DNA from: Candidatus Sumerlaeaceae bacterium
Lineage (GTDB): Bacteria > Sumerlaeota > Sumerlaeia > Sumerlaeales > Sumerlaeaceae
DNA length: 64,000 nucleotides
NCBI GenBank assembly: GCA_049968255.1
Contig: JBMFRB010000001.1
Location: 96,001-160,000 of the forward strand
Direction of reading: 5' to 3'
The notes under the pieces were generated by a model. The model was not told where the DNA came from. It saw only the letters and a program-made list of their open reading frames with translations, and did not search any database. Every line of letters begins with the position of its first letter. Positions within the stretch are counted from its first letter, which is position 1. The translations under genes were made by a program, and so were the position numbers. Positions 22,386-49,440 of this stretch are shown here, one piece after another.

Positions 22386-24881
22386 TTACTCGAGTTCCCA
22401 GGAACTGACGCGTGTGGGGACCTCGATGAAGACTGTTTTGACTGCGTCAGCAACGACCAGCTTTGATGTGTCGCTGATGGCATTGCTCAGCACAACCTTG
22501 TCCGTGCCGTCGCCACGGAAACGAAACTGCCCCAGCAGGAGCCATTGGCCACCATTAATCTGCTGGTTGATGCGAATCGTCGTCGTGCCTTGAGCGTGAT
22601 AAACCGTAAAGGGCGAATCGGTGGCCCGATTCGAGGACTCTGGATACCAGACGTAGAGCTCATAAATCCCCGGGGTGGGGATGTAAAGCTTCCAAGTGGC
22701 TGTGCTCGGGGGATTGGTGCCCCAGGAGTAGCGGTAAGACGTGCCATACTTATTGGGCTGAGCCGTGCCCGTTGTCCAAGACCCCGTGAGGCTGAAACGC
22801 TGCGAATCACTATCGTCTACGATGGAAAAGTCCGTCGAGTCTGGGCCAAGAACTAACGTGTCGAGCAAATTGCCCTGGGCATCGTAGCAATAAGCGATGA
22901 ACGAGACGGTCGACGAAGGTGCCAGAACATTAGACAAAACGAGGCGCCCATTAGCCTTTGTGGTGGTTTCGCCAAGAAAACTCCCGTCGGCAAAGACGCG
23001 TGTACGGACAGCACGATGATGATAGACTTCCACGCGGAAGGGAACGCCATCTTGGATGGGCTTGAGGTCGTTGACGATCAAGTCGCCATTGTTGCGCGGG
23101 TAGGGATTCGAGTCGAAAGCGGCCCAATGAATCGGCGAGTTGGTGCGCACATTTGCCTGCAATTGACGCAGCGTAGGCGTGTCGAGGAGATCGAGGTTTG
23201 AGAGCCCTTGGGCGCTCATCATAGCAGCGGCAGTTCCGCCAGCACTGCCAATCACCCACTCAATGGGGTGCACACGGTAGCATGCGTTTGTGATATAGGT
23301 GGTGGCGATTCCTTTGCCACCGGCGAGAAGATTCCGCACATTTGCAGAGCCAAGCGCACGATAGGGAACATAAAAGGGAGCGGCTTTGCTAAAGGGCGGC
23401 ACGATGCCCGTGCTGCTTTTGGTGGGATGGACGTCTACCGCATAATTGCCGATGCCGACAGAGTCATAAAAACGCCAGGATGTGCCCCCATTGTAGTTCG
23501 TCGCGGCAGTATTAACAAGATATCGGCTCGTAAGGCGGAAATTATCGAGACCGATGATCCGGCGACAGCAACGGATGTAAGGGAATTTCGCGAGGCCGTG
23601 CCCCGTCCCCATCATGTTGAGCGGATCAGTCGTGCCATGGGGCATGCGGGTGTCCCAAGTGGTGGTGCGGCGCTCCTTCATGTAAAAATACCACGCCACC
23701 GCGTGCTTCTCGGCCTCCGCGACGTAGGCGAGATTGAGGCCCCCATGCCAATCGGCAGCTTCGGCTGCACATTGGCTCTTGGTCTTATAGATCGAGGCGT
23801 AGGGGTAATCGTTTCCGGGATACCAGTTCTGCATGGAAACATCGCCGACATTCACACTGTCGAAGCTGAAAAGCGGGCCTGTGTTCTTCAGTCGGCGATA
23901 GGTCCAAATACGATTGTAGGTGTACGAGCCAAACGAAAAATACGTCGCGCTCTGCGTGGCGTAATAGCTATCGAAATCTGGCCAAGGAGTCTTGAGCTCG
24001 TCCTCGGTGTGGGTTGTAGGATTATCGGTCATGCAGAAGGGGAAAACAGTCGCCTGGCTACCGCTCTCATTGCAGGCTGGAGGTGTCCCATCTTCAGACA
24101 TTTCTTCGGTTGTTAGCTCACGTCCCACAGTGTAGTTTGCGCCGGAAAGAACAATCACGTCGCCTGTCTCGGATGCATCAATGACGACAAAACCTTTCGA
24201 TGGGTTGCGGGGAACGACGTCGTAGAGTATCTTCGTAAAATCTGAAGAATCGTTTGGCGAATACCAATCCGTCATTTCCTCGGAGAGAAACTTGGTGTGG
24301 GGAACATAGCCAGGCTTCGGGGTGCGCTGGATGAGAGTAAGGCTAGTGATTTTCAAGGCATTGCCGAAATCGTCGGATACAGGAATCGTCCGGACACGTT
24401 TGACAACGGTCATGCGCATGACCGTCACGTTTGTTGTTTCGGATAACATTTGGTCGAGCACCCACACTGCCGTGCGGGGATCGAAAGCCTCGCGGGAGAC
24501 CCAGCACGAGCCGTTGGGAGCGAACCCTTCGCCCGGGGCGGACGGAGGCGCATTCTTGAGACGGTTGAGAAAATCGAGATAATCGGCAGGATAGTAGAGC
24601 GTGGGCTGAGTGCGCATGAGCGTGGCACCAGGATCATGCCACGCGTTGTCAATGGCGGCAACCCCCTGCGAGGTGGTTTGGCCACCGAGCCAATCGGTGG
24701 GTTCGACCAGCAAGATTTGCGCGTTGGGATTTGTGCGTGAAGCAGCCAACGCAGCTGCCGGAGCACTAAATGATCCGCCAACAATCACTATGTCGTACGC
24801 AAGCTGCTGCGCCGCCCCGTTCATCGCAACGACTCCCCACATGAGAATGGCTAAGCAAAGGATGACGAGAACACGCCGCAT
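22386..24881 (-). CDS. Secreted FAD-dependent oxidoreductase with C-terminal golvesin/xanthan-lyase-type CBM-like domain and C-terminal W-tail
   Basis: Signal peptide MRRVLVILCLAILMWGVVAMNGAAQ; YDIVIVGG..EPTDWLGGQTTSQGV; YRVHPIEW; C-domain ATW..PTPGIYELYVWY..QQINGGQWLLLGQF..VVADAVK. Ends RVSSWELE. Confidence 0.8.
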   Translation of the reverse strand: MRRVLVILCLAILMWGVVAMNGAAQQLAYDIVIVGGSFSAPAAALAASRTNPNAQILLVEPTDWLGGQTTSQGVAAIDNAWHDPGATLMRTQPTLYYPADYLDFLNRLKNAPPSAPGEGFAPNGSCWVSREAFDPRTAVWVLDQMLSETTNVTVMRMTVVKRVRTIPVSDDFGNALKITSLTLIQRTPKPGYVPHTKFLSEEMTDWYSPNDSSDFTKILYDVVPRNPSKGFVVIDASETGDVIVLSGANYTVGRELTTEEMSEDGTPPACNESGSQATVFPFCMTDNPTTHTEDELKTPWPDFDSYYATQSATYFSFGSYTYNRIWTYRRLKNTGPLFSFDSVNVGDVSMQNWYPGNDYPYASIYKTKSQCAAEAADWHGGLNLAYVAEAEKHAVAWYFYMKERRTTTWDTRMPHGTTDPLNMMGTGHGLAKFPYIRCCRRIIGLDNFRLTSRYLVNTAATNYNGGTSWRFYDSVGIGNYAVDVHPTKSSTGIVPPFSKAAPFYVPYRALGSANVRNLLAGGKGIATTYITNACYRVHPIEWVIGSAGGTAAAMMSAQGLSNLDLLDTPTLRQLQANVRTNSPIHWAAFDSNPYPRNNGDLIVNDLKPIQDGVPFRVEVYHHRAVRTRVFADGSFLGETTTKANGRLVLSNVLAPSSTVSFIAYCYDAQGNLLDTLVLGPDSTDFSIVDDSDSQRFSLTGSWTTGTAQPNKYGTSYRYSWGTNPPSTATWKLYIPTPGIYELYVWYPESSNRATDSPFTVYHAQGTTTIRINQQINGGQWLLLGQFRFRGDGTDKVVLSNAISDTSKLVVADAVKTVFIEVPTRVSSWELE

Positions 24882-25103
24882 GCTGGTGCGGTCATGTTTT
24901 TTCGGGTGGAGTGAAAAGTTCCCTTCCCGTTCTTGGAGTAACACAGTGGCAACTCCTACACGCGCATTTATTTACTCTTATATTGATTTTGCAGAAAAAG
25001 TCACGAGTCAATCCTTGTTTGGCAGAAAGCGTGGGTAAGCTCGCTTGATGACAAGCATGTTATTGTTACCGAAGCCCCGCCGAACCGTTGGCAGGTAGGT
25101 ACT

Positions 25104-25150
25104 AAAAAAAGCTCCGATCCCCCACTCGGGGATCGGAGCTCGCTTTTTTT
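25104..25150. terminator. Intrinsic terminator downstream of groEL, probably bidirectional
   Basis: 13-bp perfect stem AGCTCCGATCCCC/GGGGATCGGAGCT with a 5-nt loop, flanked by A7 and T7 tracts. Confidence 0.85.
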
Positions 25151-25189
25151 CGCTTAGGAAAAGGAGCGACGCGCCCTTGCAGCCTGCGA

Positions 25190-26815
<1,626 letters not shown>

Positions 26816-26871
26816 TCATTTCCTCCACTTCGATTTATTTGGTTTGTTAGCAGGCGCACGAGAAGCTGCTT

Positions 26872-27177
26872 TTACTTCTTCTCGCTCTTTTCGATCACGG
26901 CGAGAATGTCGCTCTCGTGCATGATCAGGTATTCTTCGCCATCAATTTTGACCTCGGTTCCGGCATATTTGCCGAACAGAACCTCGTCGCCGACTTTCAC
27001 ATCGAGGGGGATCCGCTTGCCGCTCTCGTCTTTTTTCCCTTCGCCGACAGCGACAACAGTACCCCGCTGCGGTTTCTCTTTGGCCGTGTCGGGAATGATG
27101 ATTCCCGCGGCTGATTTCTGTTCTACTTCCTCCGCGCGCTTTACCAGCACACGGTCATGCAGCGGACGAACCGGCAT
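26872..27177 (-). CDS. groES: Co-chaperonin GroES
   Basis: [41 protein letters not shown]; RBS AAGGAGG. Confidence 0.97.
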
Positions 27178-27229
27178 GTGAGTGAACCTCCTTAACGATA
27201 GTTTGCTCGCAATTTCTGGCACAGCCTCA

Positions 27230-27245
27230 TGCAAAGCAGGTGCCG
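27230..27245 (-). promoter_or_regulatory. Sigma-54-type (-24/-12) promoter of groESL
   Basis: The minus strand reads CGGCAC-CTGCT-TTGCA, which has the exact GG-N10-GC spacing of the TGGCAC-N5-TTGCW consensus. It lies about 53 bp upstream of the groES ATG. Confidence 0.7.
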
Positions 27246-27658
27246 ATTGTAATGATGGCTAATAACAATTGCATTATCAGTGATCTATAAAGATAACGCT
27301 TTGCCATCGCCTGCCGGACTGTTCCCATTTGAAACATGTGCAAGGCGACGTGTTGAATTAGTGCGTCATTTGCGCAGGAAAACCCGGGAATCAGGCCTGA
27401 ATGCGGGCCCAGAATTGCGCCAGCGTGCGGTGGCGGCTCTCGCGAAATGAACTATGAGCATGCGAGTCGGCGCAGATTCGTGGGCAAGCCTCTTGATGAT
27501 TGTGAGGGCGCAGCTGCCTAGGACGGATACGGCCGAAAAACGAATAACCTGCACCGCTGAAACGTAGTTGGCCACGGCCTGCGTTCAGCTTTGGGCGAGC
27601 AATGTAAGAGCTCGGCCGGCTGAAACAACAGGCACATTTTGCGACAAGAGGCATAACG

Positions 27659-28321
27659 ATGGAACGCGTAGCAATCAAGTTCGAGCCGCGCGCAGCGACA
27701 GGTAAAGGGCCCAACCGCAAATTGCGTGCGAAGGGAAAAATTCCTGCTGTCATTTACGGTTCAGGCATCGAGCCACAAAAAGTCGCCCTCGATGCGCATG
27801 AGTTTGGTATTGTTCTCCAAAAGGCAGGGAGCAGCGCCATGTTCGCGCTCGTCGCTAACGAGGGACCAAGCAAAGAAGAGCGGCTAGCTGTGATCCGCGA
27901 AATTCAGCGCGATCCTGTGACGCGCCGCATTCTCCACGTGGACCTGTATCAAGTCCGAATGGATGTTGAGGCAGACTTCGAGGTGCCTGTGCATCACGTA
28001 GGGGTGCCCGTTGGCGTGCGCGAGGGAGGCATCCTCGAAACGCATCGCCACGTCGTCGAAGTGCGCTGCCGGCCTGACATGCTTCCAAAGTTCATCGAGG
28101 CTGATCTGACCAACTTGAAGATCAACCATGCTTTCCATGCGGGGGAACTGAAGCTGCCCGAAGGGCTGAAACTTGTCACGGATCCAGAAGAGGTGCTCTT
28201 CAGCATTCTTCCGCCGAAGGATTATGTCGAGCCGACGCCTGCGGCACCTGGTGAAGAGGAGATGGCTCAGCCGGAGGTTATTGGACGTAAGAAGGCCGAA
28301 GAAGAGGAAGCTGAGGAATAA
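27659..28321 (+). CDS. rplY: 50S ribosomal protein L25 / general stress protein Ctc
   Basis: GKGPNRKLRAKGKIPAVIYG, REIQRDPVTRRILHVDL, GVREGGIL, acidic tail. Confidence 0.93.
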   Translation: MERVAIKFEPRAATGKGPNRKLRAKGKIPAVIYGSGIEPQKVALDAHEFGIVLQKAGSSAMFALVANEGPSKEERLAVIREIQRDPVTRRILHVDLYQVRMDVEADFEVPVHHVGVPVGVREGGILETHRHVVEVRCRPDMLPKFIEADLTNLKINHAFHAGELKLPEGLKLVTDPEEVLFSILPPKDYVEPTPAAPGEEEMAQPEVIGRKKAEEEEAEE

Positions 28322-28626
28322 CGGTCGCTATGGCAATCTTGGCGCCGGTCGGGGTGCGTGCAGTACTCCGACCGGCGTTGTGTTTGTTGCCAACACAAAC
28401 AGCGTCGCCGTTGCAGTGCACCTCGTGAAGGTTGCAGCTTTTTAGCCAGCCTGAGTACACTCAATTGCCAATGGCAGGAGAAGGAGTTCCCCACTGCTCA
28501 TTACCGCTGGAGCAGATCAACGCGTGTGGGCTTGAAGGAAGGCACGGGGCCGCACAGCAAACCACAATGACCAGAGAGCGGGTAGCGCAAACTTCATCAT
28601 GGATAAACGCGACCGAATTTGCTGGG

Positions 28627-29103
28627 TCAGTAGGGACGCGCTGCGCTGGGCTTGAGCACGACATCGCTGCGCGCCGGTGCGCTTGGCACATACACGGACG
28701 GATCGGCCACCTGGGGCGATGACTGGAAAGAATACGCGGGGATTCGCCACTCGAAGCTACTGGCGTAGCGAGGGCCGACGTACTGTGGAGTGCCAACGTA
28801 AGCGCGAGGCCCATAGGCCGCGTACATCGGATCGCCATACTGGTTCTTCTGCGGGCCAATGAGACTTATCTGTCGCTGCATGGCCTCGCGGCGCTGATTT
28901 TCAATATCGGCTGCTTTGGCATAGGCGTCATGCACCACTTGCTGGCCTTTTTGCATGTATTTGCGCCATGCCTTGGGGGTCCAGTGTAATTCTTCCGGCT
29001 CACAGGGATTCGACCCGCCACCGCCAGCCAAGACATTGCAACATAGGGCGAGAAGAGCGAGCGCCAGGGATATCGCTCGACTAAAGCTTTGTTTGCCAGA
29101 CAT
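28627..29103 (-). CDS. Hypothetical secreted protein with Tyr/Gly/Pro-rich C-half
   Basis: Signal-peptide-like N-terminus and a purine-rich RBS; follows the 29120 gene on the same strand. Confidence 0.6.
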   Translation of the reverse strand: MSGKQSFSRAISLALALLALCCNVLAGGGGSNPCEPEELHWTPKAWRKYMQKGQQVVHDAYAKAADIENQRREAMQRQISLIGPQKNQYGDPMYAAYGPRAYVGTPQYVGPRYASSFEWRIPAYSFQSSPQVADPSVYVPSAPARSDVVLKPSAARPY

Positions 29104-29119
29104 TGCGTCTCTTTCTCCC

Positions 29120-29392
29120 TTACGGCAAATCGTGAATTTTTCGCAGCCGATAGATTGCCTCGTTTACTTCGCACGGGAGCCACTGGTCTTGCTCGCGCAA
29201 GTACCGCGCCACGAGGTCCAGCGAGCCCATTTGACTATAAAGCTGGTCGGCGTGCACCACCTGTTCCTTTTCAATAAAGCAGCGGTCGCCGCTGCCGACG
29301 GTCATAGGGTCTACTGGCATTTTAGCACGCCATGCGCAGCCAGAAAAAATGAAAGCCGCAACTATCATTGCGGCTAAAGTGACACACGTCAT
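29120..29392 (-). CDS. Small putative lipoprotein
   Basis: Hydrophobic N-terminus ending in a lipobox-like FSGC; lies directly downstream of rpsT. Confidence 0.55.
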   Translation of the reverse strand: MTCVTLAAMIVAAFIFSGCAWRAKMPVDPMTVGSGDRCFIEKEQVVHADQLYSQMGSLDLVARYLREQDQWLPCEVNEAIYRLRKIHDLP

Positions 29393-29454
29393 TTGTTTCC
29401 GTGATTTCAGCACGGCCTTATTGCGTGAACAACAGCAGAGAAAAGCAAGAGCAA

Positions 29455-29730
29455 TCACGCCGACGCTTTTTGCGCTGCGCTGAGTTTTTTCAACAGCTTG
29501 GATTGCAGGCGGCGCATTTTGTTCTTGTGAATAATGCCGCGTTTCCAAAGGCGGCCGATGAGGCTTTGAGTCTCCCGCACCATTTTGGTGGCAACATCGG
29601 CTTCTCCTGAGGAGATGAGCGTGACGCTTTTTTTGATGCATGTCTTCATCGTGGATTTTGCGGCGCGGTTGCGAGCCTCACGCTTGAGGTTTTGGCGCAT
29701 ACGCTTCTTTGCAGATTTCTTGTTCGGCAA
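29455..29730 (-). CDS. rpsT: 30S ribosomal protein S20
   Basis: PNKKSAKKRMRQ..RNRAAKSTMKTCIKK..KRGIIHKNK.RLQSKL; TTG start. Confidence 0.95.
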   Translation of the reverse strand: MPNKKSAKKRMRQNLKREARNRAAKSTMKTCIKKSVTLISSGEADVATKMVRETQSLIGRLWKRGIIHKNKMRRLQSKLLKKLSAAQKASA

Positions 29731-29886
29731 GGCAGTCCACCTTCACAGTTATTGCGTTTGTGTTTCTCCAGGAAACGGTCCCCGCACGCGCCTTCGCGTG
29801 TGCCGGGTGCCGTAATCCGGCGCTAGATACCACAGGCTACTGAAATTGTTCGCCAGGCGCGGTGTCAGAATTTGCGGTGCAGTGAA

Positions 29887-31764
29887 TCATCCCGTCCAAC
29901 CAAGGAGTTCTTCCTCCGATTTCACGAGCGGAAGCTGGACGTTGACGATCGTTCCGCACCCTTCACGGCTCCGGATGAAGATTCGTCCGCGGTGGTCATC
30001 CACGATGCGTTGCACTAGCGCAAGCCCAAGGCCGGTGCCGTGAGTTTTTGTGGTGAAAAAGGGCGACCAAATCTTTGGCAACACGTCACGCGGGATGCCA
30101 TGGCCGTTGTCCACGATCCGAATTCGGACGTACTTGCCCGTGTTTTGGGTGCGTACAATGACCATGCCGCCTCGCGGCACTGCCGATCGTGCATTTTGTA
30201 AGAGATTGAGCAGCATTTGCCGCATTTGCATGCGGTCGCAAACCGTTGGGGGGAGATCCGGCGCAAGATCGTGAACAACGGTGATTTCTTTGCGACGGAA
30301 TTCGTCCTGAACGAACGTAAGCGCTTCGGCCACGACAGTGTTGAGGTTGACCAGCTCGTAGGTGGGTTTGGCATGGCGGGCAAAGTCGAGCACATCTTTG
30401 ATGAACTTATTGAGCCGGTCCACCTCTTCCATAATAATTGCCGTGTACTCGGCTATCTTGGGATCGGCCAGATCGGCCGCGCGGCGTTGGATGCGCTGAG
30501 CAAATCCTCGCACGCTCGTCAGGGGATTGCGAATTTCGTGAGCGACAGTGGCAGCCATTTCGCCGAGCGCGGCAAGCCGTTCTTTGCGCAGCAGCTCCTT
30601 CTGAGTGCGGCGAAGAGCTTCGTAAGACTCAAGCAGCTGCCGGTTCTGTTCCTCGATCTGTCGATATAGACGCGCATTTTCAATGGCCTGGGCGGCCATT
30701 CCCGCGATGGCGAGCAAAATTTTCCGTTCCGAAAGATCAAACTCACGACGCTCGGCGGTGTAGAGGCGGATGGTGCCAATCGTGCGGCGGCGCGCGACGA
30801 GTGGCGCGCAGATCATTGAGACGACTCCCGCTCGCGTGGCTTCGTCGCGCCAGCGAAACTGCGAATCTACACGCACATCTTCCATATAAATCATCTCGCC
30901 GCCAATGACGGGATGGTCCACGTGGCTTTCCTCGAACGGGACCTCTTGGGGCCCGATAAATCGCTCGCCGCTCGATGCCACGACACGAATAAAAAGGCGA
31001 CCGTCGCGCTCCTCCAGAAGGCGAATTGTGCACTCAGCCGCATCAAAAATTTGTTTTGTGCGATGGACGATCAGCTTGAGTACGCTTTGGTAATCGAGCG
31101 TCGACGCCATCTCTTGCTGGATCTCGTAGAGAAGCGAGATTTCGCGATAGTGCTGCTCGAGCTCCTCGTGCGTGACAGCATTACGCAACACTTGTGCGGC
31201 AAGCGAGGCTAGTGTGGAAAGAAATTCTCGGGTGTCGGCATCAAACAGCCGTTGGCGGCGCGCAAAAATGTCGATGACACCCAACGCTTCATCGCCGGCA
31301 ACCAGCGGTATGGTGAGGCGGCAAGACTTGTCGCCCGCCAGCGAATCACTGCCGCGAATGTCTTCCCCGTATTGGTGCAACTGCCCCGTGCGCACAACTT
31401 CGACAAGCACGTTTGCGCTCTCAAGCAGATCAATTCGTTCCAGTCGCGGCATGGTCCCGCGCCAAAGTTTTGGCACTAACAAATTCGATGCGGAATCGAG
31501 AATATAAAGCACCGCACCGTCGGCAGCGGTCCAGCGCACGACTTCATCGAGCACAAGGCGCATGATTTCGGTGGGCTTCATCGTGGAGGTCATGGCCACT
31601 GTGACGCGATAAAGCGCCTGAAGCTGCAGCATCCGGTGATTGAGCTGCTGCGTTGTTGAGCTGTCGGCTAAGTTGTGGGCGGATGGCGAAGGGTCTCGCT
31701 GCTGCGCAGCAGCACAGCTTTCCTCGAGATGAGCGTACTTATTGGTTTTTGAGCGCTTCTTCAT
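29887..31764 (-). CDS. Cytoplasmic sensor histidine kinase with two GAF domains (NtrB-like)
   Basis: Two GAF-like repeats; H-box ERLAALGEMAATVAHEIRNPL; N/G boxes NLLQNA, DNGHGI, PFFTTKTHGTGLGL. Confidence 0.9.
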   Translation of the reverse strand: MKKRSKTNKYAHLEESCAAAQQRDPSPSAHNLADSSTTQQLNHRMLQLQALYRVTVAMTSTMKPTEIMRLVLDEVVRWTAADGAVLYILDSASNLLVPKLWRGTMPRLERIDLLESANVLVEVVRTGQLHQYGEDIRGSDSLAGDKSCRLTIPLVAGDEALGVIDIFARRQRLFDADTREFLSTLASLAAQVLRNAVTHEELEQHYREISLLYEIQQEMASTLDYQSVLKLIVHRTKQIFDAAECTIRLLEERDGRLFIRVVASSGERFIGPQEVPFEESHVDHPVIGGEMIYMEDVRVDSQFRWRDEATRAGVVSMICAPLVARRRTIGTIRLYTAERREFDLSERKILLAIAGMAAQAIENARLYRQIEEQNRQLLESYEALRRTQKELLRKERLAALGEMAATVAHEIRNPLTSVRGFAQRIQRRAADLADPKIAEYTAIIMEEVDRLNKFIKDVLDFARHAKPTYELVNLNTVVAEALTFVQDEFRRKEITVVHDLAPDLPPTVCDRMQMRQMLLNLLQNARSAVPRGGMVIVRTQNTGKYVRIRIVDNGHGIPRDVLPKIWSPFFTTKTHGTGLGLALVQRIVDDHRGRIFIRSREGCGTIVNVQLPLVKSEEELLGWTG

Positions 31765-32884
31765 AGACGCCGAGAGTCTCGCGGACGGTGCGACGCCAAG
31801 TCAAGGCAGCAGCCGCCTGGCGGGCACGAGCCACACGCTCGGCGCGCAGTGTGTCGTCGCTAAGCAGACAGGCCACAGCCGCAGCGAGCGCACGCGGCGT
31901 CGGCTCAGCCAGAACATAAGCGCTCTCTGCCCCGGTGAAATCGAACACGCCACAATTGGCCGAAGAAACTACGGGGACACCCGCAGCCATTGCCTCGAGG
32001 ATCGGCATGCCGAAGCCTTCCATGTGAGGGGCCGCCACGTAAACCGTGGCATTGCGAAGAACAATCCCTAGCTCGCGACGCGAAAGATAGGGCAAGCAAT
32101 AGACCGAACTTCGCGCCCCTGCCGCCTCGCCGCGGTGGTTAGGCGCCGCTCCAATGCAGACAAGTGGAATGTCGATGGTAAACTCGTCGCGAAGCAAACG
32201 ATGCGCGGCAAGAAGAGCTGGGAAATTCTTCCGCCGCGAGCTCCCCCCTACCGTCAGCAGGTAAGAACTGTCTAGGCCGAGCTGCCGCAGAAATTGCTTA
32301 TCCGAGGGAAATTTCCGCAGAAAGAACCGCGAAGCTACGCCCCAGGGAATCACATGGAGCCGCTGCGAGAGCTCAGGAATAAGTGAACCGAAATGACGAC
32401 GGACTTGCTCGGCGGTTCGCCTCGACGGCACAATGATGCGCGAAACGTGGGGCATGCGCCGTGGAAGGCTCCTCTGAAAATAAGCATCGCCCCACGGCAA
32501 GTGCTCCGCTTGCTCCGGGGCGTCGAGAAAGAACAAATCGTGAATGGTGGCCACGAGCGGCATGCGGTGCGTCGGCGGGATGAACATTGCAGGGGCATGA
32601 AAAAGCTCGGCGTGCGGCGCCAACATCTCCGCACAAGGAAAATCAAAGCGTTGCCACACCTGAAGCAGGAGCGGCCCGGGCAAGCGCCTGCGCAGAATGC
32701 GGACGCGACGACGACTCAGCAGGGGTAAACGTGGCAGCCGTTGACGAAAGGAATGAAAAACATAAAGGAAGTCGAAATCCGACGACAGGAACGGCAAACG
32801 CGCAGCCAGTTCGAACGTTGCCGTCCCGATGCCCGTACGCACGGGTGTAGCGGTGCTCATGTCGAATGCGATTGTTGGGGCCAA
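31739..32884 (-). CDS. Glycosyltransferase family 4
   Basis: VATIHDL, RRKNFPALL, EGFGMPILEAMAAGVPVVSS. Confidence 0.9.
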   Translation of the reverse strand: MAPTIAFDMSTATPVRTGIGTATFELAARLPFLSSDFDFLYVFHSFRQRLPRLPLLSRRRVRILRRRLPGPLLLQVWQRFDFPCAEMLAPHAELFHAPAMFIPPTHRMPLVATIHDLFFLDAPEQAEHLPWGDAYFQRSLPRRMPHVSRIIVPSRRTAEQVRRHFGSLIPELSQRLHVIPWGVASRFFLRKFPSDKQFLRQLGLDSSYLLTVGGSSRRKNFPALLAAHRLLRDEFTIDIPLVCIGAAPNHRGEAAGARSSVYCLPYLSRRELGIVLRNATVYVAAPHMEGFGMPILEAMAAGVPVVSSANCGVFDFTGAESAYVLAEPTPRALAAAVACLLSDDTLRAERVARARQAAAALTWRRTVRETLGVYEEALKNQ

Positions 32885-33051
32885 TGTGTTCTGCTCCAGC
32901 TCGTAGCGGGATGTAGTGCCGTCATGGCCATGGGGGCAATGCTTTTCTCACCTCGGTGTGGCGAGCTAGATCCGTTCGAGATGTGACGCGACTTGCCACG
33001 GGGTAGCCCGATGAAGAGTGCCACGAACGTAGGTGAAGACAGGCTCCGCCT

Positions 33052-33885
33052 TCAGTAGAGGAACCACTCCCCGACGGCGGAAGATAAAGCTGGGGTGACA
33101 TCTTGCCACGCTGTGCCAACGCGGAGTTCGTCGAGCTCAAGCGAGAGCAAACTATTACCTGCTCCCTGGCGCACGCCAACACGTCCTAGCGCCGTCAGGT
33201 CCTGAAGGGCAGCTTTGGTCACGTCCGGTGTGGGCGATGCGGATTGGCCCAGAGGCGGATTGACCCAGAGATAGGTCATATCGTCGTTTACATCGCCATT
33301 GAACGCGTAGGCGACGACGACGAAGACGGGGACTTCCACATCGAACTGTGAACTTCCCCACTGCGGCGTGTCGGTGTTTGCATTTGCGAGACCGAGCTGA
33401 AATTTCGATGCGCTGCTCCCCTGGCGGACGTAAAGACGTGCGCGAAAATCTTGAGCTCCTGCGCCGGCGCTTGAAAAGTGAAAGATATAGTCCCCGGTGG
33501 TATTGCCAGGATTGCTGACTTTGAGCACAAACGATGCGTAAACGCTAGCGCTGCTTTGATTCGTCACGTCATGGCCGGCATCCTGATAATTGCTTCCGTT
33601 GCCAAATGTGATTTTTCCACCGGACGAAGGCGGCAGTCCGAAATAGCTTAGCGAACTTGTGGCGACCTGGATCGGGGAACTCGTGCCTGTGCCAGTTTGA
33701 GTCCAGTCTCCTTGGCCAACAAGGTTGCCGCTGCCGTAGGCAAATGGCTCGTGCCAAGGCAGGGATTGTTGGGCGAAAGCACTGGCCGTGGCAAGAATGG
33801 CTACAGAAAAAAGCGAGCCCAGCCATATAGTGCCAAAATTGCAGTTTTGCTTCTTATCACGCACTGCGTCACCTCCGAGAAACAC
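33052..33885 (-). CDS. Secreted beta-sandwich (LamG/jelly-roll-like) protein, paralog 1, with C-terminal W-tail (start uncertain)
   Basis: Signal peptide ..AILATASAFA|QQSLP. Shares GNLVG, VYASF, FSSAG, W.NP, RQG and LDELR motifs with two neighbours. Ends SAVGEWFLY. Confidence 0.8.
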   Translation of the reverse strand: MFLGGDAVRDKKQNCNFGTIWLGSLFSVAILATASAFAQQSLPWHEPFAYGSGNLVGQGDWTQTGTGTSSPIQVATSSLSYFGLPPSSGGKITFGNGSNYQDAGHDVTNQSSASVYASFVLKVSNPGNTTGDYIFHFSSAGAGAQDFRARLYVRQGSSASKFQLGLANANTDTPQWGSSQFDVEVPVFVVVAYAFNGDVNDDMTYLWVNPPLGQSASPTPDVTKAALQDLTALGRVGVRQGAGNSLLSLELDELRVGTAWQDVTPALSSAVGEWFLY

Positions 33886-34145
33886 CGTTCCCGTGCATCA
33901 GAAGATGAAGACGCACTCGCGGCGCCTAACTTTGCCGACCTCGTCGCTCACCTTATCGTCAGCGAGGGCTGGGCTTAGCAACCTTTGCTAGATAATCGCA
34001 GGGCACAAAGCAAGGAAAATAGACAGGAAACTTCGTCACATGACATGAGGCAACCACGTAACCAACAAAACGAGATGCGCCCCGCGCCACACGCTATTCG
34101 CCTTTGCGCTGCGAACCCGCGACATGCCCCAACGCCTGCGCCACG

Positions 34146-34769
34146 CTAAAACCCAAGAAAAAGCTTGGCGCGATTCCAAAATGTATTGGGGACGGGGAAG
34201 TACTTCCCAGACTCTCGACAAATCGTGTCGGTCAATAAAGGCTTGAGCCGTTGAAGATCGCGCGCGTTTTTCTCCAGCATTTCTGATTTTTTATTCACGC
34301 GATTGGCAATCTCAGCATATAGGGCACCTATGCCGACCACTGGTATCGAGCGGCCATGCAGAAGGGCACGCGTTTCTCCGAGCACGTGCGGCTCCCACCG
34401 AACGATGATGCGAGGGGTCACCGTTGCAAGCACTCCATTCCACAGCCGCCGGAAAAACGTAACCTCCACCGATGCACCGCGAAACAGGAATTCAAGTTTG
34501 TGGGAGGTTTCTTTGATGAGGGCGTGGCCAAACTGTTCGCGCACCCAAGGACGATCTTTCTCGTCCGCGAGAAGATCGATATCCTTGTGGGACCGGCTGG
34601 TGCCCGTCAATGCATCAATGGCCCAGCCCCCATGAACCCACACTCTTACGCCTCCTTGCTCCATTCGGTCAAGAAGGGCAAAGAGTACTTCTACGAGAAC
34701 GCCTTGCGCCTCGGTCGCTGTAGCCTGCGGCAATCTCTCTGCTTGCTCTGATGGAGTGGAATAATCCAT
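34146..34769 (-). CDS. Nucleotidyltransferase, ANT(2'')/lincosamide-NTase-like
   Basis: VWVHGGWAIDALTG..RSHKDIDL matches the GGWxxD...RxHxDxD signature. Confidence 0.75.
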   Translation of the reverse strand: MDYSTPSEQAERLPQATATEAQGVLVEVLFALLDRMEQGGVRVWVHGGWAIDALTGTSRSHKDIDLLADEKDRPWVREQFGHALIKETSHKLEFLFRGASVEVTFFRRLWNGVLATVTPRIIVRWEPHVLGETRALLHGRSIPVVGIGALYAEIANRVNKKSEMLEKNARDLQRLKPLLTDTICRESGKYFPVPNTFWNRAKLFLGF

Positions 34770-34925
34770 AAAATGATAATTTGTTCTGCTCTCCTGAAGC
34801 TTGCTATGCCGAATCTTCTGCCGACATCGTATTCACAAGCTACCTACAGTAGACCAAGGAAAAATGCTCCTAAGTTCTGTAAGCGAAAACAAACAGGTGA
34901 TCTCAAAGGCTGCCCAAAAGTGGAA

Positions 34926-35753
34926 TTATTCCACGGTCCAAGCAGCTAGCACAATCGGCAACGTGACCTCTGACCATGACGTCGACAGGCGCAACTCGTC
35001 AAGCTGAAGGCTCAGTCCTGTGCTCGATTGTCCCTGACGCAGGCCGATGCGGCCGACGTACGACAGCTCGGAATTTGTTGTCGCCTGGAGAGTCGCTGGC
35101 GGGGGAGTCTCTTGCTTAAGGGCCGGGTTGATCCACAATGCCGCGACATCGTCGTTCGTCGCGGGATTAAACGTGTAACCGACCACAAGAAGAAGTGGCG
35201 TGCCCACATTATACTCCACAGAATCGTAGACTGTTGAGTCTGTGGCGGCGTTGCGTACGCCAAAGATGACTTTACTAGCGCTCGAGCCACGCTTTGCGTA
35301 GACTATAGCATGAAAATCTGTTGCGCTGGTTCCTGCGCTGGAGAAGTGCAGAAAAGCATCGCCCGTTGTTGTTCCCGGATTGACGACGTTGACAACGAAC
35401 GACGCGTAAACACTCCCAGAGACCTGCGGTGTCAGATCGAGGCCGACATCTTCATAATTTGAACCATTGCCGAGACTCACTTTTCCGCCCGTCGCGCCTG
35501 GCAGTCCTGCATAGGACAGTGATCCGGTGCTCACTTGCACGGGCGAGACACTTTGTGAGCCCGTTCGCGTCCAAATCGCTGTTCCATTGCTCTGCCCCAC
35601 TAGGTTTCCCGTTGCGTAAGCAAAGCCTTCGTAAAAGGGCAACGACGCTTGCGAAAACACATTGGCGTAGGAAAGAGAAAGTAAGATCATAAAGCTCGCT
35701 ATTACACAACGGCTGGGTCGTGCTGAGGACGAAGAGATAAGTTTTGCACTCAT
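34926..35753 (-). CDS. Secreted beta-sandwich protein, paralog 2, with C-terminal W-tail
   Basis: Signal peptide ..SLSYANVFS|QASLP; same motifs as paralogs 1 and 3. Ends PIVLAAWTVE. Confidence 0.8.
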   Translation of the reverse strand: MSAKLISSSSARPSRCVIASFMILLSLSYANVFSQASLPFYEGFAYATGNLVGQSNGTAIWTRTGSQSVSPVQVSTGSLSYAGLPGATGGKVSLGNGSNYEDVGLDLTPQVSGSVYASFVVNVVNPGTTTGDAFLHFSSAGTSATDFHAIVYAKRGSSASKVIFGVRNAATDSTVYDSVEYNVGTPLLLVVGYTFNPATNDDVAALWINPALKQETPPPATLQATTNSELSYVGRIGLRQGQSSTGLSLQLDELRLSTSWSEVTLPIVLAAWTVE

Positions 35754-36084
35754 ATGCCACCTTCCGCTATAAGCTCTGCGAGCGCGAAGGTGACGCGAAC
35801 CATCGAGACAAGGCACAGACATTGTCGCTGGGCGTGTGCCAAGCTCTGGCGAGCTCTTCACATCCGCGCAGATTTGTGAAGCAGGAAACAAAATCGAGAG
35901 TTTTACATGCAAACAAAATATACAGGGGACAAATCCCCCCTCTACAAAGGTTACGCGGTGGGCCACTGAGCGCAAATTCCTAGAAGCTCAGACGAGCACC
36001 GTCATTACGACAAAGGGTATGTGAAATGCGATCGCGGACGCGAGTTGTCTGCCGTGGCCCACGGCACCTCAGGCGGGTGTGATT

Positions 36085-36714
36085 CTAGTTGCGTACCCGT
36101 TCACGAGCGCGCTGCATAATTTCGGCGTCGAGCAGTTTCACGGACTCTGAAAGTTGACGGTACTTTTCTCGCAGCTCGTCTGGTGAACTCGCCGCAAGCA
36201 GCTCTTCGGCCATTTTCGATAGACTTTCGAGTTTTTCTTGAAGTTCGGCCTGCTCGCGGTCGCTGGCGAGCAGGCGCGCCCCCATGTACTTGTCTTCCAG
36301 GGCCAAGATCGCGGCCTGAACGGACTCCACCTGCTGGGTCGTCACGCGGTCGGTGATGGTTACCGGGATTTTGTCGAGCGCATCAAGCACATCCTGAATG
36401 GGAGAGGGCGCGGCCGTCGTTGTCGCCACAACACCCGCTGAAGTCTCTTGCGTTTCCCCATGCTTGGTTTGTGCAGCTCCACTCAGGCGAGCAGTGGCTC
36501 GAGTGTCCGCCTGAGGGCTCTGCATCTTTTCCACGTGTGCTGGCTTGGCTTTCGATTTCTCGAAGTGTTCTTGCGAGGATGCGGACTGGCCCACACCGCT
36601 TTGTTTACCTTCCCCACAACCGCCTAGAAACAGAGCGGTGATAAATATTCCGCACAACAACTCGCCTGGCGCCGAAAGGCGGTACATCCACACCATAAGG
36701 ATCAAAACCTCCAC
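36085..36714 (-). CDS. Putative lipoprotein with helical C-terminal region
   Basis: Hydrophobic stretch with lipobox LGGC, a low-complexity linker and a coiled-coil-like C-terminus. Confidence 0.6.
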   Translation of the reverse strand: MEVLILMVWMYRLSAPGELLCGIFITALFLGGCGEGKQSGVGQSASSQEHFEKSKAKPAHVEKMQSPQADTRATARLSGAAQTKHGETQETSAGVVATTTAAPSPIQDVLDALDKIPVTITDRVTTQQVESVQAAILALEDKYMGARLLASDREQAELQEKLESLSKMAEELLAASSPDELREKYRQLSESVKLLDAEIMQRARERVRN

Positions 36715-37089
36715 GGGGAAAGTGTCCGCGTGCTACTTTCACTTTGGACTCTGGCGGGGGTGGGTGGACGCTGCAAGAGAATTGTGCGCCGGATGCCCTG
36801 GCCGGCGGAGCGCAAAGGACTTTGTCACTGCAATCAAAACCGGACTTGTCACGTCTCCGGAAGGTGCAGTCTTTCGCAGAGGTCCCTAAGCTTGGCATTG
36901 GTCAAAGGCTGCCAATACAGACTGTAGAGCTGGAACACAAAAAAGTGCGTGCGGGGAAATGCCCGCACGCACAGTAATGTCTTCTTGTCTCTTCCCTCAA
37001 CGACCGGCGTGGCCGTTGCGCCGGTCGAACTTCCTACGCGACGAGTGAGCCCACCGAAACGTCCGACGGCCCTGCTCGTCGGCGGACTC

Positions 37090-37890
37090 TTAGTACAAGG
37101 TCCAGTCGTCCACGCCGGCATTCGTAGGCGTGACATCAGTCCAGGACGTGGAAACCCGCAATTCATCCAACTCAATCACCTGAGAGGTAGAGGAGCCCCC
37201 TTGGCGCAGATTGACGCGTCCCACTGCTGCGAGATCCTGCGATGCTGTTGCAGTCAGATCCGCAGAGGGGGGCGAAGTCTGCCCCAGCACGGGATTGATC
37301 CACATCGAGCTGCTGTCATCGCCAGGAGCGAAGTTGTAAGCCACAACGACGAACACGGGCGTGCCCACAGGGAGATCGTTGCTCTGCTGGATCGTGTCGG
37401 AACTTCCGTGGCGTAGTCCGAGCTTGAAGTTCCCCGATGTAGTACCAAGCTGAACATAAACGCGAGTCCGGTAATCTGATGAGCCTGTTCCCGCTGAGGA
37501 GAAATTGAAGATATAGTCGCCGGTTGTAACCGTTCCCGGATTCACTACATTGAGAATAAACGAGGCGTAAACGGTTTGGGTGGTCGAGGCGACATCAATT
37601 CCTGGGTCTTCATAGCCGCTACCATTGAGCAGTTGGACTTTGTTCCCCTGGGAAGCAGGGAGCCCGCTATAGGCGAGGGAGCCGCTGAGGACCTGCACGG
37701 TCGACGATGTATTTGTCCCCGTCCGTTGCCACGTGCCGCCAGCAATTGTGTTGCCCACGAGATTGCCTGTAGGATAGTTGAAATGTTCCACGAGGGGAAG
37801 CGACGCTTGCGCCGAGGCGAGAGAAGCGCCCGCGACAAAGGTCGCGACAGCAACTACACTTTTCCACACGGAGGCGAGATGTGCTTTCAT
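37090..37890 (-). CDS. Secreted beta-sandwich protein, paralog 3, with C-terminal W-tail
   Basis: Signal peptide MKAHLASVWKSVVAVATFVAGASLASA|QASLP; RBS AAGGAG. Ends AGVDDWTLY. Confidence 0.85.
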   Translation of the reverse strand: MKAHLASVWKSVVAVATFVAGASLASAQASLPLVEHFNYPTGNLVGNTIAGGTWQRTGTNTSSTVQVLSGSLAYSGLPASQGNKVQLLNGSGYEDPGIDVASTTQTVYASFILNVVNPGTVTTGDYIFNFSSAGTGSSDYRTRVYVQLGTTSGNFKLGLRHGSSDTIQQSNDLPVGTPVFVVVAYNFAPGDDSSSMWINPVLGQTSPPSADLTATASQDLAAVGRVNLRQGGSSTSQVIELDELRVSTSWTDVTPTNAGVDDWTLY

Positions 37891-39019
37891 CAGAGTTTCT
37901 CCTTATCGTGATTTGCGAAAGCAGGGACGGTTATCTTACCATTTTCCGCGGTTCTGCACCGGAGTACGGCCACTCTCCGGAGCACTTGCGCACGAAAAAG
38001 AACGCCGTCCTCTGCTTTCAAAACCCTGCAGTAATTCTTACGCCATTTGCATATATTCAAGTCAAAATGCCAGATTCGCTCTCTTGGATGGCTTTCACCA
38101 TCGTGTCACAACAAAATACGGGGCGGTGCGCAATGCCCTTCCATATAGGTTTTTCAGCAGTGTATCAGCCCAAAACCTCCGCGCCGAGCGTGCTGTGAAG
38201 TCGGTGAGCGTCGCAGCGATCAATGCGCGCGAGGCCCGCCTTGGTGCAAAAGCGAGTTCTCCGCGCACGCAAAACACGTACTGGCCGCGGCTGTGGTGAT
38301 TATCATGTTATCAAGATTATTAGATATGTGTGGATGAGAAGACGAGTAAGGATTACCTAGCACGGGTTGGGGATGCGGCGCAGATTCCCACCAGACATGT
38401 CATGCAAGCACAAAGAGACACCATAAGCGAACAACAAGCTATGCGCACGGATGCCCATCGCCTGGGGGAATAACTTGGAAAAGCTAATGAAAATTCTCGG
38501 GGGGTAGTGGATGCACTATGGCATGAGGGCAAGATCTCCAAGATCTCTGTGACTTTTTATGATGAGGAGCAAGGTAGCTGAAAAAGTGACACAGGGGTGA
38601 CATCCAGGAGCTCGAATACCAATGAGCCTAGGCCGTAGCGAGATTGACGGAAAAACGGAGGGGACGGCGCTTATTCGCTTCGCCGGTCAATTTTTTTCGA
38701 TTTTTGTCCGGTTAGCATAGACAGGCGTGAGGGCAGCAAGGGAAAAAACAGACCGGCGACAGGGCAGACCATACGAATCATGCATTGCCAAACTGCGATT
38801 TAGCTGGAGTCGGAGCGAGCTGCTGTGCTGCGCTTCATTTTTTTTGTCATTAGTGCAAAATTGGGTTGACTGACGCCGTAAGTTTGACATAAGGATACCT
38901 GTTGCGTTGAAGGAAGAAGCAACAAATTTTCGCAGCGTTTGCCCACGGGCGTTGCGCGTCTGCTTCTTCTTAGCCACGCGATGATTACACAACAAAACCA
39001 TGAGAAAGGAGTACGCCTC

Positions 39020-40684
39020 ATGAAAAAGCAATTCCTGGCGATGGCGGGTGCGCTCGCAGCCACCGCTTCCTTGTCATTCGCCATACCTTTCGACAACTCA
39101 GCTGGCGGCCCAGTCGTGGCCACGGTCGGCCCAAATGCTGGTGACGACTACACGTCGCTTTCGGCGGCTGCAGCGGCATTCAGCGCGGTGTCGGGCGGCA
39201 TCAACCGCGAATGGACGCTCCAAATCACGGGCGACCTGACCGAGACGACAGCCAGCTACTTCGGCAACACGTTCGGGCCAGGTGCGAAGCTGATCATCAA
39301 GCCCGCACCAAGCACACAACCGACGATCACGTTCAGAATTCCAAGCACCCCTTCGGGCATTTATGGTGACGTGGTGTTTGGTGTCAGCGACGGGAACGTT
39401 CCTACCGCCGCAAACGACAGGCCGTCCGATGGCAACTACGTGATTGACGGCTCGAACACGCCGGGGGGCACCACGCGCGACCTAACCTTCCAGATTCCCT
39501 CCACGCAAAATGATCCGATGCTGCGTGTGATTCGCATCTGGGGCGACACCAAGAACATGGTGATCAAGAATATGAAGATCATCACGCGTGATAGCAGTGG
39601 TAACTCCCATTGCATCGGGCTGGCTAGCGGGCAAACGAGTGATGCCACGCCAGTTCCTCGACGCGTCCAAGGATTGCTCATTGAGAACTGCTATCTCGAG
39701 GCTATTCCTGCGGGCACGAGTGGCTTCGGTGTCGACTCGAGCCTCACAGGAAACAGCACACTGCCGGCTGGACAGTGCCAGGAGAACATCATTGTACGCA
39801 ATTGCGACATCGTAGGCAAGCAGCGCGGCATTTTCCTGCACATGGCGTCGGGGACCCTGGAAAACAACAGGATCTCGGTGGAGCAGGGAACTGGGGCAGG
39901 AGTCTCTTATGCTGGCATCTTCCCGTTCCAGAACAACACGACGCCTGGTGGGAGTGTGATCATTCGCAACAACGTGGTAAAGGTCACATGCCCTTCGACA
40001 TCGGCTGGGCAGGGGGCTTACGGGATTCTTTACGACAGCGGCATGAATGGAACTGCGGTGGATATTTACAACAATATCCTCAAGGATTTCAGTTTCACCT
40101 CTGCGTCAGCAGTTGACCTGATCTACCGCGGCATCAGCGTTGGCACAGCCGGCTCGACCGCAACAGTAGAGCATAACTCGTTAGATCTGGCGGCCAACAA
40201 CACCGCAGTGAGCGCTGCCACGGCGGGTCGAGTGGCAGGAATTGCGATCCCGGTGACGATGACGACAGCAACGGCTGCCGTGCGGAACAACATCGTGCGC
40301 ATGGGCAATACGGGTGCGACGGCAACCTGCATCTACCTGGCGGCAACAACGAACGTGATCAGCGAGGGTAACGACCTTGTTCCTAATGGTTCGCCAAATA
40401 CAGGGCGAGTTGGGGCCACAGCCTATGCCAGCTTGGGGGATTGGCAAGGTGCTGGATTCGATCTGCCGGCATCGGGTGCTCAGAGTGTGGATCCGTCGTC
40501 GGTGGTTCCGGCGTGGGATGCCAATCTGCACTTCTCGCTGAAGCCGGTCGGGCTTGGCACAGTGGCCAGCTCGACGGTTCTTACGGACGTTGACGGGGAT
40601 GCTCGTCCGGCTACAGGTGCGTATCCTGGTGCGGATGAGCCACCTGGTCCGGCAGCAGGCGTGGCTGACTGGGCGCTCTTCTAA
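39020..40684 (+). CDS. Secreted parallel beta-helix (pectin-lyase-fold) protein with choice-of-anchor-Q-like end and C-terminal W-tail
   Basis: RBS AAAGGAG; signal peptide MKKQFLAMAGALAATASLSFA. Repeated I-x-N-N/C beta-helix rungs (IENC, VRNC, LENN, IRNN, IYNN, VEHN, VRNN); DVDGDARP..YPGADE. Ends AGVADWALF. Confidence 0.8.
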   Translation: MKKQFLAMAGALAATASLSFAIPFDNSAGGPVVATVGPNAGDDYTSLSAAAAAFSAVSGGINREWTLQITGDLTETTASYFGNTFGPGAKLIIKPAPSTQPTITFRIPSTPSGIYGDVVFGVSDGNVPTAANDRPSDGNYVIDGSNTPGGTTRDLTFQIPSTQNDPMLRVIRIWGDTKNMVIKNMKIITRDSSGNSHCIGLASGQTSDATPVPRRVQGLLIENCYLEAIPAGTSGFGVDSSLTGNSTLPAGQCQENIIVRNCDIVGKQRGIFLHMASGTLENNRISVEQGTGAGVSYAGIFPFQNNTTPGGSVIIRNNVVKVTCPSTSAGQGAYGILYDSGMNGTAVDIYNNILKDFSFTSASAVDLIYRGISVGTAGSTATVEHNSLDLAANNTAVSAATAGRVAGIAIPVTMTTATAAVRNNIVRMGNTGATATCIYLAATTNVISEGNDLVPNGSPNTGRVGATAYASLGDWQGAGFDLPASGAQSVDPSSVVPAWDANLHFSLKPVGLGTVASSTVLTDVDGDARPATGAYPGADEPPGPAAGVADWALF

Positions 40685-48292: not shown

Positions 48293-48694
48293 TCACAACC
48301 AGCGACGCGTCAGCCCGATTCCAACATGCACCGCGATAAGCCCGGCGAACAAGCTGCCAAAGATATTCATTAGCCCCAAGAGCCAGCTGCCTTCGTTAAA
48401 AAGGCTATGCGTTTCGTACTCGAAGGTGGAAAATGTGGTGTAGGAACCGATGAAACCTATGCAGATGAGAAAGATCATGGGGCGGCTGTGAGGCACAAGT
48501 CCTGCTTGAAGGATAGGGAGCAAAAAGCCGAGGACGAAGCTGCCCGTGATATTTACCCAGAAGGTGCCGTAGGGGAAAATTGGGCCAAAGAGCTGGTTCA
48601 TCCATGATGCGAAAACGAATCGGGCATTAGCACCGAGAAAGCCACCCAATCCAACAAGGAAGTAAGGCATGAGAGCTTTCATCATTTTCTCCAT
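48293..48694 (-). CDS. crcB: Fluoride efflux channel CrcB/FluC
   Basis: LVGLGGFLGANAR, FPYGTFWVNITGSF, GFIGSYTTFSTF. Confidence 0.95.
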   Translation of the reverse strand: MEKMMKALMPYFLVGLGGFLGANARFVFASWMNQLFGPIFPYGTFWVNITGSFVLGFLLPILQAGLVPHSRPMIFLICIGFIGSYTTFSTFEYETHSLFNEGSWLLGLMNIFGSLFAGLIAVHVGIGLTRRWL

Positions 48695-48719
48695 GAGTGT
48701 TTTTCAGAAGTGATCAGGG

Positions 48720-49417: not shown

Positions 49418-49440
49418 TGTTCGCCCATTCTTTAAAGTTT

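Follow-up and report, generated by a model that had tools for sequence, protein, structure and literature searches.

Why should secreted proteins of different build, encoded close together on one bacterial contig, end in the same short peptide around a tryptophan? The question is raised by a stretch of 64,000 nucleotides from Candidatus Sumerlaeaceae bacterium (NCBI GenBank assembly GCA_049968255.1, contig JBMFRB010000001.1, positions 96,001 to 160,000 of the forward strand), in the following called the window, in which five proteins end VSSWELE, VGEWFLY, LAAWTVE, VDDWTLY and VADWALF. A preliminary description of the window had interpreted this tail, written as [VL]..W.[LV][YFE]$, as a signal read by an outer-membrane export or surface-attachment machine. 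All five tails indeed end exactly as given there. From the evidence presented below we consider it about an even chance (probability roughly 0.5) that the tail is a lineage-specific C-terminal tag of Candidatus Sumerlaeota, which is read in trans for sorting or anchoring.

The regular expression was run on the 475 open reading frames (ORFs) of the window that comprise at least 50 amino acids in any of the six frames. It matched five of them, exactly the five long ORFs with a signal peptide, so that the tail is confined to secreted carriers in the window, as had been claimed. A Trp at position -4 in any context was found in 13 of the 475 ORFs. The single expression finds all five tails, but it merges two distinct classes, which we call the Y class, [VI]-x-[DE]-W-[STA]-[LVIM]-[YF]-COOH, and the E class, (L)P[VI]-x-[LI]-x-x-[WF]-x-[LVIM]-[ED]-COOH. 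The tail consists of 7-11 residues that follow a short Pro/Ala/Ser/Gly linker. The carriers and their tails are:

22386 to 24881, minus strand: secreted protein with FAD_oxidored and Golvesin_C domains, 831 amino acids, E-class tail (Pfam PF12831, E 3.4e-55; PF25275 Golvesin_C at residues 688-817 of 832 scanned; homologues named Sumerlaeota)
22389 to 22421, minus strand: tail VPTRVSSWELE of this protein, beyond the end of Golvesin_C (stop codon 22386-22388)
33052 to 33885, minus strand: concanavalin A (ConA)-like beta-sandwich paralogue 1, 277 amino acids, Y-class tail (GTG start uncertain)
33055 to 33075, minus strand: tail VGEWFLY of paralogue 1
34926 to 35753, minus strand: ConA-like beta-sandwich paralogue 2, 275 amino acids, E-class tail
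34929 to 34961, minus strand: tail LPIVLAAWTVE of paralogue 2, E class, pattern LPV-x-L-x-x-W-x-[LV]-E
37090 to 37890, minus strand: ConA-like beta-sandwich paralogue 3 (P0001), 266 amino acids, Y-class tail (51 homologues)
37093 to 37113, minus strand: tail VDDWTLY of paralogue 3
39020 to 40684, plus strand: right-handed beta-helix secreted protein, 554 amino acids, Y-class tail (stop codon 40682-40684; 53 homologues)
40661 to 40681, plus strand: tail VADWALF of the beta-helix protein, preceded by the linker PPGPAAG

The gene starts of the FAD protein and of the E-type sandwich (paralogue 2) were corrected to 24881 and 35753, respectively. Four of the carrier genes stop with TAA and one with TGA; read-through or frameshifting beyond these codons was ruled out, as none of the frames leads into another domain. 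Hydrophobic signal-like N-terminal segments with AxA-type ends are present on all five carriers. The three sandwich proteins share 47-52% identity. Since they are paralogues, the five carriers represent three independent families; the folds of the other two carriers differ, in line with the three unrelated families of the preliminary description. An NCBIfam scan of the beta-helix protein gave a weak match to TIGR03804 (para_beta_helix). All five genes fall within 18 kb, and a scan of the window against Rfam yielded zero matches. Exported window proteins that do not have the tail are a SPOR protein, two small lipoprotein-like ORFs and an SBP_bac_5 protein.

As a control, 1083 ORFs from 75 non-Sumerlaeota loci (1.35 Mb) were used. 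Counted on greedy non-overlapping ORFs, the tail expression was found in 5 of 49 ORFs of the window versus none of the 1083 control ORFs, of which a relaxed expression matched two. Across the 224 retrieved homologues, which are related rows and hence not independent counts, the motif was terminal 81 times, lay within 30 residues of the end four times and was internal once in 138,644 positions.

The main searches were queried with paralogue 3, and the profile search of genome contigs used a 14-sequence sandwich alignment (A2). Where close homologues were named, they were assigned to Candidatus Sumerlaea, Sumerlaeaceae or Sumerlaeota. In the ESM Atlas cluster to which P0001 belongs, most members are likewise Sumerlaeota; of those with a known phylum, they number 27. 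Three loci, L001-L003, are syntenic contigs of Sumerlaeota metagenome-assembled genomes, and the gene neighbourhood is common to the window, L001 and L003. On L003, the ortholog of paralogue 1 (1988-2812) ends ..VCDWAPY and that of paralogue 2 (155-979) ends TLPVALTSWVLE.

All three carrier families retain the tail across Sumerlaeota-type homologues. Among the 51 sandwich homologues, 40 have W at -4 and 38 match [VLI]..W.[LVIM][YFE]$, and D262, W263 and Y266 of the P0001 tail are invariant across the 14 close homologues of alignment A2. Of 53 beta-helix homologues, 31 have W and 37 an aromatic residue at -4; the tail is conserved in dozens of them, down to approximately 36% identity, and the window, L001 and L002 agree in all of the C-terminal 22 residues. 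For the FAD/Golvesin family we counted the best 120 of 548 homologues, 52 of which have W at -4. A census of the tail in the 89 of these 120 with a Golvesin_C end in the last 50 amino acids gave W at -4 in 49 and F or Y at -4 in seven, one of the latter (P0144) actually being a bare Golvesin_C domain end. The tail also occurs on P0195, which does not contain Golvesin_C, after a different domain. Homologues of low-GC style (P0025-P0043 type) have tails ..DWTVF and ..YYWEFE, so that the tag may reach beyond Sumerlaeota. Between genomes, the codons of the tail vary at synonymous sites with the residues unchanged. Judged by these alignments, the Trp (not Phe) of the tail is near-invariant and under purifying selection.

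We then asked what the relatives carry at the same position. The last 130 amino acids of 78 homologous sandwich ORFs from genome contigs were scanned with hidden Markov models (HMMs) comprising TIGR04183 and PEP-CTERM models. The sandwich domain terminates in a conserved 'DELRVxTSWxDVT', and this shared end is followed by the type A C-terminal domain (CTD) of type IX secretion systems (T9SS; TIGR04183) in 50 of the 78 homologues and by PEP-CTERM-type models in eight. The former belong to Bacteroidota and Ignavibacteriota, the latter to Verrucomicrobiota and Planctomycetota. In P0049-P0051 the PEP-CTERM motif begins immediately past '..SWADVT'; the protein of L026 is PEP-CTERM-like by eye, but did not match an HMM. 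One homologue has a PelN-like end. Nothing was matched in 19 homologues, among them the three tail-bearing Sumerlaeota ORFs, L005 (a run-off ORF), L066 (a broken match) and eight Verrucomicrobiota ORFs with an unassigned end domain of about 80 amino acids. Among the distant beta-helix relatives, P0101 passes the cut-off of the T9SS CTD, and P0102-P0104 lie marginally below it. The question raised in the preliminary description, whether homologous domains elsewhere have PEP-CTERM or T9SS signals where the tail is found, can therefore be answered with yes, for the sandwich by these eight and 50 of 78 homologues and for the helix by P0101.

Golvesin_C was detected in 8719 representatives of the whole protein library (E<=1e-3). 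Among the best 149 of these 8719, at least 64 end no more than 12 residues past the domain and have no tail, and the tail was found only on P0236, a fragment with 83% identity. Golvesin_C ordinarily ends bare, and the tail is thus an addition to a complete domain.

Some further ends were seen in these searches. P0294 and P0342, in which Golvesin_C is joined to other N-terminal parts, have the tail-like ends '..SSISFELY' and '..SSGCMFY', respectively, the N-terminal domain of P0342 being serine-hydrolase/PBP4B-like; they are possible further carrier families. An end domain of 80-90 amino acids finishing '..[FY][FY]R[LV]xxx' (for example ..KFYRLQQVP and ..RFFRVVSP) is present at L031, L046, L054, L056, L064, L074, L076 and L078, seven of which are labelled as Verrucomicrobiota-type and one (L054) as Candidatus Sulfotelmatobacter. 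NCBIfam gave zero matches to it at E<=0.01. As it occupies the same slot as the T9SS CTD and PEP-CTERM, it may be another sorting or anchoring domain.

To follow the two tail classes, a maximum-likelihood tree was calculated from 50 sandwich homologues after 12 C-terminal residues had been cut from each tail-bearing row and the PEP and T9SS rows had been trimmed to 270 amino acids; P0044 (182 amino acids) was excluded. On this tree the Y label changes eight times, at least five of these changes being forced by well-supported branches, and the E label six times, at least four of them forced in the same way. For instance, P0017 and P0020, which end ..DWSLY, neighbour P0022 and P0028, which end ..LSHFTME. 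Both classes are also contained in the beta-helix and FAD/Golvesin families. The exchange of Y and E tails between close relatives is cassette-like, and the tails thus behave as sorting signals do. At the level of sequence, the comparisons show a tail that is modular, conserved as protein and placed in the slot of the T9SS CTD and PEP-CTERM.

Structure models were consulted for two of the families. The AlphaFold2 (AF2) model of the sandwich P0001 had a mean predicted local distance difference test (pLDDT) value of 91.5, with the tail residues 261-266 below 50. That of the beta-helix protein, which consists of stacked strands, reached 93.2, the tail residues 546-554 again being below 50. A Foldseek search with the sandwich returned jelly-roll lyases of the PL type, lectins and X122 domains with TMq values up to 0.53. 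The models weakly but consistently suggest that the tail is a flexible, exposed peptide outside the fold; the objection that it might be an integral strand of each domain was not borne out by the AF2 predictions for the sandwich and the beta-helix. A complex prediction with two sandwich copies (residues 29-266, alignment A1) scored 0.00, which is no answer and has no bearing either way.

Is the tail one of the known signals? No model of Pfam or NCBIfam matched it, neither with the whole proteins (E<=1) nor with the last 40 amino acids (E<=10), and the statement that it lies outside the defined sorting HMMs thus held. The likeness to the T9SS CTD consists in the C-terminal position on Sec-exported proteins with signal peptides, the short linker in front and the same passenger domains. 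According to PMC10994853, the CTD is a folded seven-stranded beta-sandwich of approximately 70-90 amino acids, which PorV and SprA recognise in its entirety; a Lys close to its C-terminus is near-invariant. The tail differs by its 7-11 residues (it is, as had been noted, far shorter), by the fact that Lys occurs in none of the five and by the missing match to TIGR04183 and PF18962. Since the translocon binds the whole folded CTD (same source), a single strand cannot be a canonical T9SS signal. SprA/Sov, PorV, PorU or other T9SS machinery was not found among the window ORFs scanned.

PEP-CTERM, LPXTG, GlyGly-CTERM, MYXO-CTERM and PGF-CTERM signals are described as consisting of a signature motif with a transmembrane helix and a basic cluster after it. 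With PEP-CTERM the tail shares the slot after the sandwich, the restriction to a lineage and the unrelated passengers. Unlike all tripartite signals, it stops three residues past the Trp and has neither a hydrophobic helix nor an Arg/Lys cluster; together with the missing model matches this bears out the earlier view that it is not LPXTG, PEP-CTERM or GlyGly-CTERM. The WxL domain of Gram-positive bacteria is a fold of more than 100 amino acids with two WxL motifs, by which secreted surface proteins are held non-covalently. Its likeness to the tail is confined to the three letters Trp-x-Leu near the C-terminus, and Pfam WxL was unmatched (E<=1) on the five carriers. Short C-terminal motifs that are read in trans, often by beta-strand addition, are also known from the beta-signal (YxF) of outer membrane proteins (OMPs), from PDZ ligands and from the donor strands of chaperone-usher and type V pili. 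The carriers studied here are soluble jelly-roll or beta-helix proteins, not barrels or pilins, and two of the five tails end with Glu, which distinguishes the tail from an OMP beta-signal. The resemblance of the beta-helix protein to choice-of-anchor Q, suggested in the preliminary description, was not confirmed, as NF041518 remained unmatched on this protein (E<=1) and on its last 40 amino acids (E<=10), as well as on P0052 at E<=0.01; only L075, a Verrucomicrobiota PelN-like protein, gave a sub-threshold match (18.8 bits versus a cut-off of 25). The tail fails the defining features of the T9SS CTD, the tripartite signals, WxL, the OMP beta-signal and choice-of-anchor Q. The literature consulted on Sumerlaeota, C-terminal sorting signals, exosortase/rhombosortase, choice-of-anchor and type IX secretion, with subscription journals and the supplements of PMC8092238 outside its scope, did not describe such a tail. 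Literature on type IX secretion in BRC1 likewise yielded nothing relevant.

If the tail is a sorting or anchoring tag, the following route may be envisaged. The carriers, which have carbohydrate-binding or lyase-like folds or combine an FAD oxidoreductase with Golvesin_C, leave the cytoplasm by Sec and are of the signal-peptidase-I type. Thereafter a putative envelope receptor would bind the exposed tail in trans, most simply as an added beta-strand or by its Trp and aliphatic anchor residues. The putative receptor might then move the protein across the outer envelope or retain it on the surface, and the tail would functionally stand in for a CTD or PEP-CTERM. For the outer-membrane export or attachment signal of the preliminary description this means that its signal-like character is supported by the modular, HMM-less and swapped tail in the slot of known signals, while the machine that it postulates lacks a counterpart, as no receptor gene was found.

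Several points weigh against this reading. Among the window proteins scanned there is no candidate for a receptor or machine, and the presence of an outer membrane in Sumerlaeota is a presumption. The Glu/Asp end of the E class misfits a reader with a pocket for a carboxylate and a hydrophobic side chain, e.g., a canonical PDZ domain. In the FAD/Golvesin census 18 of the 89 homologues have 2-25 extra residues after the W motif, so that not all tails form a free C-terminus at a fixed position; another 12 end differently, and three lack a tail. A crude signal-peptide score, based on the hydrophobicity of the N-terminal segment, does not separate tail-positive (93 of 99) from tail-negative homologues (118 of 125); since the segment is equally common in both, the score shows only that the carriers are exported. 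A low pLDDT at a terminus is weak evidence of exposure. The Sumerlaeota DNA compared, about 91 kb, comes from the window and from L001-L003, and in this sample only three families plus P0195 carry the tail, the window carriers being clustered within 18 kb. Clustered carriers of one functional type could mean that the tail serves one shared function rather than general sorting.

Three genes of the window were considered as receptor candidates and rejected. The coiled-coil lipoprotein at 36085-36714 (minus strand) has no family match and no evident peptide-binding fold. Like its counterpart on L001 (11094-11810, plus strand), it possesses an LGGCGE lipobox-like site, a low-complexity middle and a predicted helical C-terminal part, and in the window and L001 its gene lies directly downstream of the Y-class sandwich gene. 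The tetratricopeptide repeat (TPR) protein at 3..5675 (minus strand) has a cytoplasmic-looking N-terminus, which is rich in Cys and not preceded by a signal peptide; the ORF, of at least 1891 amino acids, is open past the window start and gave a weak sub-threshold match to TPR_Slam. At 52642-53844 lies an ATPase of the T2SSE family, which is distant and unspecific.

Short C-terminal sorting tags such as LPXTG, PEP-CTERM and the T9SS CTD have each led to a dedicated machine and to a listing of surface proteomes from sequence. Should the tail be such a tag, Sumerlaeota, an uncultured and widespread phylum, would export or anchor polysaccharide-acting proteins by an undescribed route that involves neither a transmembrane helix nor a folded domain. 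A simple regular expression or HMM would then delimit the Sumerlaeota exoproteome, and the machine might be traced by phylogenetic profiling.

Both tail classes show a further likeness, namely to the cargo of T9SS, which has to be considered before the alternatives are weighed. The eight residues preceding the PNP turn of the CTD read approximately I-[DE]-G-F-x-[VI]-Y in 46 of the 50 homologues that bear a CTD. In these 46, position -4 is F in 30, position -2 is V, I or L in 38 and position -1 is Y or F in 44, so that the spacing of the Y-class tail equals that of the first CTD strand. The pattern and spacing of the E-class tail correspond to the start of an 'LPVELxxF' module in T9SS cargo. 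The motif 'LPV.L..[FW]' was found five times in non-Sumerlaeota loci, always 170-211 amino acids from the C-end, where it opens a pre-CTD module. The module 'LPVELxSF[ST]A..V.L.W.T' before a T9SS CTD is encoded at:

L012, 271 to 2730
L018, 3797 to 4906
L018, 7231 to 8448
L018, 8894 to 11368
L071, 9944 to 11218
also on the proteins P0046-P0048

For the module proteins of L018 (8894-11368) and L071 and for P0046, Pfam reported the CTD alone; the element looks like an undescribed Fn3-like module. The likeness of the tails to these cargo modules extends over four to six positions and is not backed by an HMM. Through it, a connection with the evolution of T9SS signals can be tested.

The first alternative is that the tail is an assembly tag. 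As a mini-dockerin or donor strand it would link the secreted carbohydrate-active proteins with one another or with a scaffold into an extracellular or periplasmic complex, and it would not be involved in membrane crossing. By their lectin- or lyase-like folds the carriers are related in function; they lie within 18 kb and keep their neighbourhood in L001 and L003. The predicted flexibility and exposure of the tail, the tolerance of extra residues after the motif, which a docking strand would allow, and the likeness of both classes to first strands of immunoglobulin (Ig)-like modules would suit this explanation as well. In other phyla, however, the slot is filled by export and anchoring signals and not by assembly modules, and a scaffold gene with repeated receptor domains was not seen in the window. 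We regard an assembly tag as rather unlikely.

The likeness to T9SS cargo would also be explained if the tail were a vestige, the first strand that remained after loss of a T9SS CTD (Y class) or of an LPVEL Fn3-like module (E class) and was kept because it stabilises the end of the passenger or the linker. The spacing before the PNP turn in 46 of 50 CTD homologues and the opening of the pre-CTD module in the five proteins of L012, L018 and L071 are as this explanation would have them. However, the identical cut point would be needed in at least three unrelated families, and the tail, with its pLDDT below 50, is not packed on the domain. It is W, not F, that is near-invariant and apparently under purifying selection, and the classes swap between close relatives, which is unexpected of vestiges. 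The likeness itself spans four positions and has no HMM support. A vestigial origin is therefore, in our judgement, clearly unlikely.

Somewhat less probable still is a special form of the sorting tag, in which the tails would be single donor strands, strand 1 of a CTD in the Y class and strand 1 of the LPVEL Fn3-like module in the E class, that dock into a strand-deficient Ig-like receptor of the envelope, the whole being a split-domain system derived from T9SS cargo modules. If this were true, it would be a new kind of machine, the receptors of which would be CTD-like or Fn3-like domains that have no strand 1.

Another possibility is that the tail is a motif for a periplasmic PDZ-type protease or for quality control or regulation (Prc/Ctp/DegS-like), which would determine stability or processing and not location. 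DegS is activated by aromatic C-termini, YxF among them. Tails of the Y class often agree with the pattern of class I PDZ ligands, [ST]-x-hydrophobic-COOH; in the sandwich family S or T is found at -3 in 30 of 51 homologues (16 S and 14 T) and Y or F at -1 likewise in 30 of 51 (25 Y and 5 F). The E class, which ends with Glu or Asp, does not fit, 18 of the 89 FAD/Golvesin tails are not terminal, and a tag for degradation or processing would be unexpected exactly where the relatives carry export signals. We therefore consider this explanation very improbable.

Chance or shared ancestry, whether through paralogous descent or through repeated DNA where the genes end, is effectively refuted already. 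Although three of the five window carriers are paralogues, the tail is carried by three unrelated folds and by none of the 1083 control ORFs, and dozens of homologues, with identities down to about 36%, conserve it. A DNA repeat was rejected because the gene ends are free of tandem repeats and the codons of the tail show synonymous differences.

Outside the region of the carriers, some other genes of the window were noted. On the minus strand a Memo-like gene (8665-9504), a radical SAM gene with a twin-arginine-like N-terminus (12191-13504) and a Memo + AMMECR1 fusion (15783-17426) are clustered, with a membrane protein of 757 amino acids with a spermine-synthase-like domain encoded between them. 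The former three look like a set of the AmmeMemoRadiSam type. On the plus strand a Y-family polymerase-like gene (IMS/IMS_C; 41159-42451) is followed by a second gene of the DNA polymerase III alpha type (42133-46221), the two being an imuB/dnaE2-like mutagenesis pair. This region shows the maxima of the window for both GC content (0.59-0.60) and GC skew (0.13-0.17). Finally, the minus strand at 48293-49501 contains a gene for a CrcB-like fluoride channel and, after it, a tandem pair of DUF190 genes.

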